DNA from: Burkholderiales bacterium
GTDB lineage: Bacteria > Pseudomonadota > Gammaproteobacteria > Burkholderiales > JALYOK01
Assembly: GCA_046598945.1 (NCBI GenBank)
Contig: JBKJHT010000202.1
Location: 5,222-69,221 of the forward strand
Length of the DNA: 64,000 nucleotides
Direction: 5' to 3'
Part shown: positions 18,084-19,295 of the stretch, piece after piece
Layout: every line of letters starts with the position of its first letter
How positions within the stretch are numbered: the stretch's first letter is position 1
Notes under the pieces: model-generated
Database searches by the model: none
Seen by the model: the letters and a program-made list of their open reading frames with translations, nothing else
Told to the model about the DNA's origin: nothing
Made by a program: the position numbers and the translations under genes

Positions 18084-19295
18084 ATGGCGGAGGGACTGCG
18101 TGTGAAAATATTTCTTAGCTATGCCTCGCAGGACCGGGAGATCGCGCAGGCAATCAATCGGGCCCTTCTGGAGCAGGGGCACGATGTGTTTTTCGATCGT
18201 GAAGACCTACCGCCCGGTGAAGAATTCCACATTCAGATTCGGCGCGCGATTGAGGGGGCGGATTTGTTCGTGTTCCTCGTAAGTGAGCACGCGATCGATT
18301 TGGGTAGCTACACGCTGAACGAACTCGACATTGCAGAGAAGAAACTAAAACAGGCGTCCGGACGGCTGTTGCCGGTGTTGTTGCGGCCAACGCCGTCAGA
18401 CCGGTTGCCTGCGTTCGCGAGGTCGGTAACCTTGCTGCAATCGCCGGGAAATATCCCGGCCGCGGTTGCTGACGCGGTGCATCGCATCGCGACCAAGCGC
18501 CGTCGCGGGCTGCTGTGGAAGGTTAGTGGCGGCGCGGTGGTGCTTGCGTTCATCGTTGCCGGCGTTTGGTTTGCGCGTTTTACCGGCTCGCCGGCACAGA
18601 CGATCACCGGCAACGATGGCGCGCCCGCAGTGTTGCTGCCCGCCGGCAATTTCACCATGGGCGACGACGAAGAATCGCCGCGCCGCGAGCTTTATCTCGA
18701 TGCGTTTTACATCGACCGCTTTGAGGTGACGACCGCGCGTTATGCGAAATTTCTCGCCGCCACCGGGTCCATGCGTCCGCCGGACGGCTGGGAGACGCTC
18801 GATCTGAGCCGCGGCGCAGAATTACCGGTGGTCGGTGTCGACTGGAACGATGCTGCTGCCTATTGCAAGTGGGCCGGTCGCCGTTTGCCGACCGAAGCGG
18901 AATGGGAAAAGGCGGCGCGTGGCGCGGACAACCGCCGTTACCCGTGGGGCGACGCATTGCCGGCACTTGACCGCGCGAACTATGAGAATGCGTCGCCGGA
19001 AGCCTACAATGGTGGTCTCGCGGCGGTGGGTACCCATGCGCCGGGTCGCAGCCCGTTCGGCGTTGACGATCTCGCGGGAAACGCCGCCGAATGGGTCGCC
19101 GATTGGTATTCGGATAGTTTTTTGCGCAGCGATGTGCGTAATCCGAAAGGGCCGGAAATCGGAACGGCGCGGGTAGTCCGCGGTAGCGGGCGATTTGATC
19201 CGAGCGAACGTCTCATCGCCACCAAACGCTACCATGCCAATGCGGATCTCAGGAGAGAGGACATTGGATTTCGCTGTGCGCGGGATGTGCGGTAG
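18084..19295 (+). CDS. TIR domain / single TM helix / FGE-sulfatase (SUMF1-like) domain protein
   Basis: N-terminal TIR pattern ([34 protein letters not shown]). KRRRG followed by the helix [24 protein letters not shown]. C-terminal FGE-sulfatase motifs ([49 protein letters not shown]). The start could instead be GTG 18102 (VKIFLSY). Confidence 0.8.
   Translation: [403 protein letters not shown]

Follow-up and report, generated by a model that had tools for sequence, protein, structure and literature searches.

The 64,000-nucleotide stretch of Burkholderiales DNA analyzed here (contig JBKJHT010000202.1; hereafter the window) encodes, between an arsenic gene cluster and tpiA, a protein that joins an N-terminal Toll/interleukin-1 receptor (TIR) domain to a C-terminal domain of the formylglycine-generating enzyme (FGE) fold through a single membrane helix. 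Comparative analysis indicates that this TIR-FGE gene has long resided in the chromosome and that its product belongs to a large family of TIR proteins that cross the membrane once and carry interchangeable outer domains. We interpret its product as a stand-alone inner-membrane receptor, with its N-terminus in the cytoplasm and its C-terminus in the periplasm, in which ligand-driven clustering would switch on NAD+ cleavage by the TIR domain, and we assign this functional reading a probability of roughly 0.5. TIR proteins that combine a sensor with an effector are of a known sort; what would be new is the predicted transmembrane sensing of an extracytoplasmic cue.

The N-terminal domain belongs to the TIR superfamily. 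It matches Pfam TIR_2 (PF13676) over residues 9-109 (E = 2e-21; 77.2 bits against a cut-off of 28) and, more weakly, Pfam TIR (PF01582; E = 1.2e-6, above the curated cut-off), in agreement with a first-pass annotation of the window that had read a TIR_2-type pattern at residues ~7-125 (residue numbers follow the 403-residue numbering from ATG 18084 throughout). The GAA codon that this annotation had placed at the catalytic position of NAD-cleaving TIRs encodes Glu80, within SYTLNELD. In alignments, Glu80 falls on the catalytic Glu of BtpA/TcpB (4c7m), PdTIR (3h16), and AbTir (7uxr), and it is invariant in all 22 aligned orthologues, at identities down to 61%; pairwise identity of the TIR domain within the family is 70%. 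An AlphaFold2 (AF2) model built on the alignment of these 22 orthologues has a mean pLDDT of 66, with values of 75-88 over the TIR domain. Foldseek searches with the modeled TIR returned NADase-type TIRs as the nearest solved structures, namely SPARTA TIR-APAZ, Caenorhabditis elegans TIR-1, and SARM1 (target-normalized TM-scores of 0.67-0.72 for isolated SARM1 TIR chains), in keeping with the first-pass comparison to NADase TIRs. Collectively, these observations point to a TIR of the NAD-cleaving type that has kept its catalytic Glu and that probably cleaves NAD+.

The hydrophobic helix that had been noted after the motif KRRRG is the sole Kyte-Doolittle peak above 1.6 in the protein and is predicted to be its single transmembrane (TM) segment. 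Five Lys or Arg residues occur among the 18 residues on its N-terminal side and none among the 18 on its C-terminal side, and no N-terminal signal sequence precedes the TIR domain. The sequence of the segment is weakly conserved (31% pairwise) with its hydrophobicity retained, and in the AF2 model one helix runs unbroken from the last TIR helix through the membrane. Because of the charge bias, the missing signal peptide, a conserved cysteine pair in the outer domain (Cys261/Cys398; see below), and the cytoplasmic location of NAD+, we predict that the TIR domain lies inside and the FGE domain outside, in the periplasm, which is the topology that the first-pass annotation had also predicted.

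The C-terminal domain has the FGE-sulfatase fold (Pfam PF03781; residues 182-400; E = 2.6e-52; 178.5 bits against a cut-off of 23.3), as previously proposed for residues ~183-403. When the family profile was compared with solved structures, human FGE matched with E = 3e-44 and bacterial FGEs nearly as well; FGEs are also the top Foldseek matches of the modeled ectodomain, the C-terminal half of which has low model confidence. At the positions of the Cu(I)-binding residues C336 and C341 of human FGE, the protein has Asp372 and Ser374, and no Cys occurs at this stretch in any of the 22 aligned family members, which bears out the earlier observation of a catalytic stretch without Cys. An identity as a formylglycine-generating enzyme (SUMF1/FGE) was therefore rejected, since both Cu(I)-binding Cys are missing in 22 of 22 members and no formylglycine synthesis by the known mechanism is to be expected. 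An EgtB/OvoA/SenA-type non-heme iron sulfoxide synthase was likewise rejected: NCBIfam scores fell far below the cut-offs (EgtB, 76 bits against 360; SenA, 84 against 420; OvoA, 16 against 400), and the N-terminus is a TIR domain with no DinB hit. The iron ligands of EgtB and OvoA, a His triad, lie in an N-terminal DinB-like domain. Homologues carry the source labels ‘formylglycine-generating enzyme’ or ‘SUMF1/EgtB/PvdO family nonheme iron enzyme’; judged by the catalytic-Cys and NCBIfam tests, both labels are misleading, and these propagated names should be corrected.

Other elements of the fold have been kept. Cys261 (AYCKW) and Cys398, the only two invariant cysteines of the family, align with C218 (AYC(T/K)WAG) and C365 of human FGE, which form a structural disulfide there. 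Both positions of the second human pair (C235 and C346) are occupied by residues other than Cys. Retention of one Cys pair and joint loss of another is the behavior of real disulfides. The pair is also retained in FGE-only relatives (68/76 and 60/66 aligned), most of which have an N-terminal hydrophobic signal or anchor; the position of Cys261 is Cys in 68 of 76 exported FGE relatives. The conserved disulfide predicted here argues for an oxidizing, extracytoplasmic location of the domain. The GNxxEW and DW motifs, which form a Ca2+ site in FGE, do not vary within the family and are also kept in relatives. In the stretch that corresponds to the former active site, all 22 aligned sequences have R366, R376, and R382; close orthologues have an Arg-rich version (R366, R370, R376, and R382), and most relatives have Trp at position 370. 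As a matter of speculation, this stretch may hint at an anionic ligand.

The modular organization of the protein became evident from an exhaustive HMMER search in which only the TIR domain and helix (residues 7-177) were queried against 1.84 billion cluster representatives. At E ≤ 1e-3 there were 9579 hits, of which 1804 reached E ≤ 1e-10 and 123 reached E ≤ 1e-30. Among the best 150 hits, 101 (representatives from 50% clustering) were N-terminal single-TIR proteins of 240-1000 amino acids (aa). These match the query through the TIR domain and mostly through the helix (to residues 130-170) at 40-55% identity, and most have a hydrophobic helix at approximately residues 136-170. Glu80 is kept in 101/101 representatives, and F10, F36, D38, L42, P109, and G122 are also conserved, while sequences past the helix diverge completely. 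We define a TIR-TM-variable-ectodomain family by an N-terminal TIR domain with the catalytic Glu, a C-terminal extension of that domain (P109 and G122), a single TM segment at approximately residues 136-165, and a variable domain thereafter, all of which the window protein has. The C-terminal parts of the 101 representatives cluster into 11 recurrent classes and 28 singletons. The recurrent classes include a beta-rich class (20 members; proteins of ~500-620 aa; no Pfam annotation), the FGE class (12/101 members), a helical class (11 members; ~480 aa), a small class (9 members; ~262 aa), and multi-pass membrane classes. Outer domains that Pfam recognizes on the TIR-helix module include FGE, Amidase_2 (PGRP fold), PAN, CarboxypepD_reg, TPR, DUF4019, and CHAT-TM-TPR-LysM, with LysM located behind the TM segment that follows CHAT in two CHAT-containing members.

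The exchange of parts extends in the other direction as well. FGE domains that are 38-49% identical to the window ectodomain occur in kinase-TM-FGE, caspase-FGE, trypsin-FGE, and signal-peptide-plus-FGE proteins, and Ser/Thr-kinase-TM-FGE proteins are encoded at three loci (L068, L070, and L075), where the FGE domain is 38-43% identical to that of the window. At the level of sequence, the combination of a constant cytoplasmic module, exchangeable outer domains, and an ectodomain shared with transmembrane kinases is a receptor-family signature. The first-pass annotation had proposed an extracytoplasmic sensor wired to a TIR effector, and this two-way modularity of the TIR-helix module and the FGE domains supports that proposal; NADase activity and signal transduction are inferred.

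Several members of these groups are of interest in their own right. The beta-rich class, the commonest of the ectodomain classes (P0152-P0258; 20 representatives), has outer parts of 350-470 aa with no significant Pfam match and a sub-threshold Mala_s_1-like hint, and may represent a sensor domain. Outside the membrane, further TIR-helix members carry a PGRP-type Amidase_2 (P0210), PAN/Apple (P0257), CHAT-TM-TPR-LysM (P0180/P0241), or CarboxypepD_reg (P0243); the combination of TIR and PGRP folds places two innate-immunity folds in one bacterial protein. Also among the best TIR matches are proteins of 1400-2300 aa (P0123, P0125, P0126, P0129, and others) with five to seven tandem TIRs and, often, WD40-like C-terminal repeats. 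FGE domains are fused to caspase (Peptidase_C14) or Trypsin_2 domains at L009, L046, and L008, the kinase, caspase, and trypsin fusions being found in Chloroflexota and Nitrospirota, and in dozens of Nitrospira genomes there are genes for 270-320-aa proteins made up of a signal peptide and FGE domain only.

The TIR-FGE combination itself is widespread. The TIR_2 and FGE architecture of the window protein recurs, at the same length and at 61-98% identity to it, in at least 120 clusters (at 90% identity), the named sources of which include Betaproteobacteria/Burkholderiales, Casimicrobiaceae, Rhizobacter, Gemmatimonadales, and Longimicrobiaceae. Pairwise identity of the FGE domain is 70% (65% in its C-terminal half). 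In six pairwise comparisons, in some of which dS is near saturation, dN/dS was 0.05-0.18 for the TIR domain and 0.07-0.19 for the FGE domain; for the whole gene it was 0.07-0.18. Both halves of the gene are thus under purifying selection by this measure, and the gene is therefore judged functional. A decaying or spurious open reading frame (ORF), or a chance fusion, is effectively refuted by this conservation: gene decay has occurred in the region, where the neighboring aioA is a deletion remnant, but the reading frame of the TIR-FGE gene is intact, its dN/dS is ~0.1, its architecture recurs throughout those clusters, and its homologues share their start residue, before which a GGAGG precedes GTG 18102 in the window. 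Since the ectodomain is under purifying selection, it is not a sensor of the diversifying type that is generated by diversity-generating retroelements (DGRs). Such a DGR-diversified FGE-fold/C-type-lectin (FGS) sensor was rejected on account of the identity of the C-terminal FGE half, the low dN/dS, and the lack of a linking repeat, and those ORFs around the window gene that were scanned included no reverse transcriptase (RT).

The genomic setting indicates that the gene has resided in its present position for a long time. The window is ordinary core chromosome and carries, among others, trpE, mltA, an ABC transporter, the ars/aio cluster, the TIR-FGE gene, tpiA, secG, the nuo operon, and glnS. 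With a GC content of 0.615, the TIR-FGE gene is richer in GC than the window as a whole (0.558), and its GC content at third codon positions (GC3; 0.681) equals that of tpiA (0.681) and nearly that of nuoD (0.682). Colinearity with a metagenomic contig (L001) spans window positions 11538 to 27078, and in the same place, between ars genes and tpiA, L001 has a homologue whose protein is 81% identical. Nucleotide identity between the window and L001 is 78% for the TIR-FGE gene, 79% for ars, 79% for tpiA-secG, and 83-85% for nuo. Because the identity of the gene to its L001 counterpart matches that of its flanks, and because the position is the same, the gene is placed by this comparison in the common ancestor of the window and L001 lineages. 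The same two observations, GC3 equal to that of core neighbors and identity to L001 that matches the flanks, rule out a recent horizontal acquisition, and the earlier description of the locus as an AT-richer accessory patch does not hold. AT-rich are only the divergent upstream DUF3237 gene (17299-17853; GC 0.49) and a 230-bp intergenic region (GC 0.465).

From these observations, we propose a mechanism in which the periplasmic FGE-fold domain would act as a non-catalytic, lectin-like ligand binder that keeps the Ca-site motifs and the predicted disulfide. A conserved periplasmic or envelope-derived ligand, or a perturbation of the envelope, would alter the oligomeric state of the receptor, and the rigid helix through the membrane would transmit the change in the ectodomain to the TIR domain. 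TIR NADases (SARM1, AbTir, TIR-SAVED, SPARTA, and Cat1) are active only on self-association, where a neighboring TIR completes the active site. Here, the TIR domains would assemble, a composite active site would form, and NAD+ cleavage would start, with growth arrest, death, or a nucleotide signal as the outcome; no partner protein would be needed. That the ectodomain has diverged so little suggests that its ligand is conserved, for example a glycan of the envelope, a fragment of the cell wall, or a feature common to invaders, and is not a fast-evolving phage protein. The most likely role would be envelope-level danger sensing (phage, competitor attack, or cell-wall damage), and this is the least certain step of the proposal.

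Several observations weigh against this proposal. Most homologues are located among ordinary metabolic or housekeeping genes (catalase, alcohol dehydrogenase, ABC transporter, acetyl-CoA synthetase, TonB, and polyketide synthase genes), unlike phage-defense genes with their fast turnover. Synteny is long-lived in two lineages, that of the window and L001 and that of the Gemmatimonadota, where an acetyl-CoA synthetase/TonB/NHL context is kept across three loci (L003, L004, and L171) whose proteins are 62-68% identical to the window protein. The ectodomain is conserved rather than diversifying, and its C-terminal half in the AF2 model has pLDDT values below 50, too low for inspection of a binding site. 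No full-length PADLOC model matches the protein, the weak hits being confined to the TIR region. We consider that housekeeping-type contexts weaken the anti-phage role specifically and not the reading of the protein as a receptor.

Related-locus searches yielded at least four full-length loci in genome contigs and at least about six in metagenome contigs among the matches listed, which were mostly FGE-only relatives. Across ~8 independent genomic contexts of homologues, no conserved neighbor gene was found. The absence of a Thoeris-type partner that had been reported for the window extends to these contexts, and the TIR-FGE protein looks self-sufficient. The first-pass annotation had set a uniformly housekeeping context against enrichment in defense islands; the contexts are not uniformly housekeeping, with L084 being a clear conflict island (nSTAND1, DUF4062, trypsin, the core of an extracellular contractile injection system, and a resolvase), and a defense-island signature was not found either. 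Patatin phospholipase genes occur within 0.1-3 kb of the homologue in two independent lineages (L002/L088 and L173-175), and a CHAT protease gene occurs 4 kb from the homologue in L003. In the first of the patatin lineages, a TPR-S/MAP3K_TRAF_bd protein and then a patatin are encoded 2-4 kb upstream of the TIR-FGE homologue (L002, 1-4036; L088, 2983-6217), a pair that could form a conflict system of its own or have a loose functional link to the homologue; L002 also encodes a TIR_2-TPR protein. In L173-175, a different patatin is encoded directly downstream. Patatin as a partner was not adopted and is kept as a lead only, since it is limited to two lineages and absent from the window and the other contexts. 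At another locus (L170, 4237-5322), a gene for a 361-aa reverse transcriptase (RVT_1) lies among those of a branched-chain amino-acid ABC transporter, at a distance of 3 kb upstream from the homologue; no template/variable repeat links it to the TIR-FGE homologue, and a DGR connection at this locus was ruled out on that ground.

Three other readings of an intact and functional protein were weighed. The same receptor could use its TIR domain as a signal generator, such that a second messenger (an isomer of cyclic ADP-ribose, His-ADPR, or similar) acts on a distant effector with a non-lethal outcome. The conserved catalytic Glu would serve such a role, and strong purifying selection and stable synteny fit physiological signaling better than an abortive-infection toxin. 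The patatin genes within 0.1-3 kb in two independent lineages and the CHAT or trypsin genes near the homologues of L003 and L084 also favor it, patatin, CHAT, and trypsin being of the kinds of effector that are switched on by TIR signals in known systems. Yet no effector gene adjoins the homologues in a conserved manner, the window copy has none, the patatin association is limited to two lineages, and no SLOG, Macro, SAVED, or CARF-type receptor was found among the Pfam-annotated genes of the window and the homologue loci, where not every ORF was scanned. On balance, we regard a signal-generating TIR as unlikely.

A further alternative is that the TIR domain is a non-enzymatic interaction scaffold that recruits a cytoplasmic partner, as in animal Toll-like receptors (TLRs). 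The architecture of the protein does mimic that of a TLR, and there are weak sequence matches to the TIR domains of TLR1, TLR2, and TLR6; but the Glu is 100% conserved over 101 diverged representatives, the best matches in both sequence and structure are NADase-type TIRs, and no candidate TIR adaptor is conserved nearby, which together make a scaffold distinctly improbable. Somewhat less probable still is that the FGE fold is the functional part, as a periplasmic enzyme or maturation factor (PvdO-, NirV-, or GldK-like) or as an anchor to the wall or outer membrane, with the TIR domain an accessory. The source annotation as a ‘SUMF1/EgtB/PvdO family nonheme iron enzyme’, weak NCBIfam matches to GldK, SenA, EgtB, and PvdO (all far below cut-offs), and the many close relatives that are stand-alone exported FGE-fold proteins are in its favor. 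Against these stand the loss of the copper-binding Cys pair, an N-terminus that is a TIR domain with no DinB-type match, and equivalog scores that are all 4-10 times under their cut-offs. Furthermore, the TIR domain is constrained at least as strongly as the FGE domain, and the TIR-helix module is the constant core part, since it is found joined to many outer domains that are not related to one another.

In its layout, the proposed receptor resembles animal TLR/IL-1 receptors, which are also single-pass proteins with an extracytoplasmic ligand-binding domain, a cytoplasmic TIR, and modular, exchangeable ectodomains; ligand-induced receptor association is established for TLRs and would be expected of the TIR-FGE protein. 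In contrast, the TIR domain of the window protein is N-terminal (type II, N-in), while TLRs are type I proteins with a C-terminal TIR; the ectodomain has the FGE/C-type-lectin fold rather than leucine-rich repeats (LRRs) or immunoglobulin domains; and the catalytic Glu is kept, while TLR TIRs are scaffolds, with no MyD88-like adaptor evident here. Given the N-terminal TIR, the absence of an LRR hit in Pfam, and the N-in charge bias, membership in the TLRs was rejected, and the protein is TLR-like in layout only.

With TIR NADases (AbTir, BtpA/TcpB, PdTIR, SARM1, TIR-SAVED, SPARTA TIR-APAZ, Pycsar PycTIR, and ThsB), the protein shares the TIR_2 domain and a Glu in the same alpha-C motif, and with TIR-SAVED a self-contained sensor and TIR in one polypeptide. 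It differs in being membrane-anchored with a putative sensor outside the cytoplasm; the known enzymes are soluble and sense cyclic nucleotides, guide/target nucleic acid, NMN/NAD, or phage proteins in the cytoplasm. Scores for Thoeris, retron-TIR, and SAVED-TIR models (NCBIfam and PADLOC) were far below membership level. Thoeris I-IV was rejected in view of a ThcB4 score of 30 bits against a cut-off of 220, PADLOC ThsB hits that are weak and cover the TIR only, and neighbors that are the DUF3237 gene and tpiA.

FGE (SUMF1) and pFGE (SUMF2) share with the window ectodomain the fold, the Ca-site motifs, and a Cys pair of the C218-C365 type, and pFGE likewise has no catalytic Cys pair; neither is joined through a membrane helix to a TIR domain, and the window domain, unlike FGE, has no Cu(I)-binding Cys. 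FGS domains have been proposed as non-enzymatic, invader-sensing binders that are always C-terminal. They are described as intracellular, are often RT-hypervariable, and work together with effector-associated domains and with NTPases of the STAND or vWA-MoxR type, TIR being among the effector domains of these NTPase-centered conflict systems (Kaur et al., 2020, PMC7159879; Kaur et al., 2021, PMC8195603; PMC10907252). Unlike those systems, the TIR-FGE gene is accompanied by no NTPase, RT, or template repeat, is under strong purifying selection, and encodes an ectodomain that is predicted to be extracytoplasmic. The concept of envelope sensing with a cytoplasmic output is shared with the phage sensors Zorya ZorAB, Kiwa KwaA, and SNIPE (reviewed in PMC13434031), to which the protein has no sequence relationship. 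ToxR-like one-component receptors also combine an N-in effector, a TM segment, and a periplasmic sensor, and eukaryote-like-kinase receptors of the kinase-TM-FGE type use a related ectodomain; the window protein differs from these and from the phage-entry sensors in using a TIR domain as its output, where they use a nuclease, motor, DNA-binding domain, or kinase.

More broadly, we tentatively suggest, at somewhat less than even odds, that the TIR-helix proteins constitute a large undescribed bacterial family of true transmembrane TIR receptors, functional counterparts of TLR/IL-1R, in which an NAD-cleaving TIR chassis is combined with interchangeable periplasmic recognition domains and no partner is needed. 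If so, the cell would detect envelope-level or extracellular patterns and answer with NAD+ cleavage, and the window gene would be the FGE-lectin member. To our knowledge, and as far as the literature showed, all characterized bacterial TIR systems sense cytoplasmic cues. A TIR enzyme wired to the periplasm would be a new input route for TIR/NAD+ signaling and would come closer in layout to animal Toll-like receptors than any bacterial protein so far. The pattern of the family, with a constant TIR-helix part and exchangeable outer domains that include a PGRP-type amidase of peptidoglycan-recognition ancestry, makes the idea directly testable, and such proteins could supply compact one-gene sensors for synthetic biology. 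Consistent with the first-pass annotation, which knew of no characterized TIR-TM-FGE protein, we found no published description of a bacterial TIR-TM-ectodomain or TIR-FGE protein in full-text literature, in which most subscription-journal papers were not covered; an earlier computational mention of TIR-TM-ectodomain proteins may exist.

The features of the gene are compiled in Table 1. The 403-aa ORF at 18084-19295 from which the first-pass annotation started is present, and its translation agrees with the letters quoted there; its start requires revision. In all homologues, the residue equivalent to Val7 is the first residue, and inspection of the sequence found no Shine-Dalgarno motif upstream of ATG 18084. 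Because homologues begin at the GTG codon at 18102 and GGAGG lies upstream of it, this codon is almost certainly the true start, which would give a protein of 397 aa.

Table 1. Coordinates of the TIR-FGE gene and its predicted elements in the window.
Feature	Position (nt)	Strand	Residues	Remarks
Sigma-70-like promoter candidate, TCGACG-17-GATAAT	18041..18069	+		Consensus scan, 9/12; consensus match only; in AT-rich divergent intergenic region
Longest ORF	18084-19295	+		403 codons
Shine-Dalgarno motif GGAGG	18089..18093	+		8 nt upstream of GTG 18102; read from the sequence
Likely coding sequence of the TIR-TM-FGE protein	18102..19295	+		397 aa and stop; start shared by homologues
TIR core	18108..18410	+	9-109	Pfam TIR_2; fold reaches approximately residue 125
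Glu80 codon (GAA)	18321..18323	+	80	Catalytic-Glu position of NAD-cleaving TIRs
Continuous predicted helix	18453..18584	+	124-167	AF2 secondary structure; pLDDT 73-84
Single TM segment	18510..18578	+	143-165	Follows KRRRG; Kyte-Doolittle peak
Periplasmic FGE-sulfatase (C-type-lectin-like) domain (predicted location)	18627..19283	+	182-400	Pfam
Cys261 codon	18864..18866	+	261	Predicted disulfide partner of Cys398; invariant
Cys-free, Arg-rich stretch	19179..19238	+	366-385	Holds two Cu(I)-binding Cys in true FGEs
Cys398 codon, in GFRCA	19275..19277	+	398	Predicted disulfide partner of Cys261; invariant

The sole break in colinearity between the window and L001 lies directly 5' of the TIR-FGE gene (window 17174-18103; L001 7110-8002). 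In the window, this variable cassette contains the gene for the secreted DUF3237 protein (GC 0.49); in L001, a glyoxalase-family gene takes its place. A comparison of the two contigs marks the cassette as a small replacement hotspot beside an otherwise stable gene. Approximately 139 bp of the L001 cassette (7125-7261) match window positions 4451-4586 on the opposite strand with 79% identity, which may reflect a small repeated or mobile element. Within the ars/aio cluster, the gene for the arsenite oxidase large subunit (aioA; window 14006-15015) is the deletion remnant mentioned above. Compared with the intact 820-aa protein of the syntenic L001, residues 1-102, read in frame 2, run at ~14305-14311 directly into residues 586-820, read in frame 1, with ~1.46 kb gone, and the adjacent gene for the Rieske subunit (13501-13995) is intact. 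Elsewhere in the window and unrelated to the TIR-FGE gene, a YfbK-type vWA protein (50405-52207; vWF_A, VWA, and YfbK_C) adjoins a GGDEF diguanylate cyclase (48169-49461).

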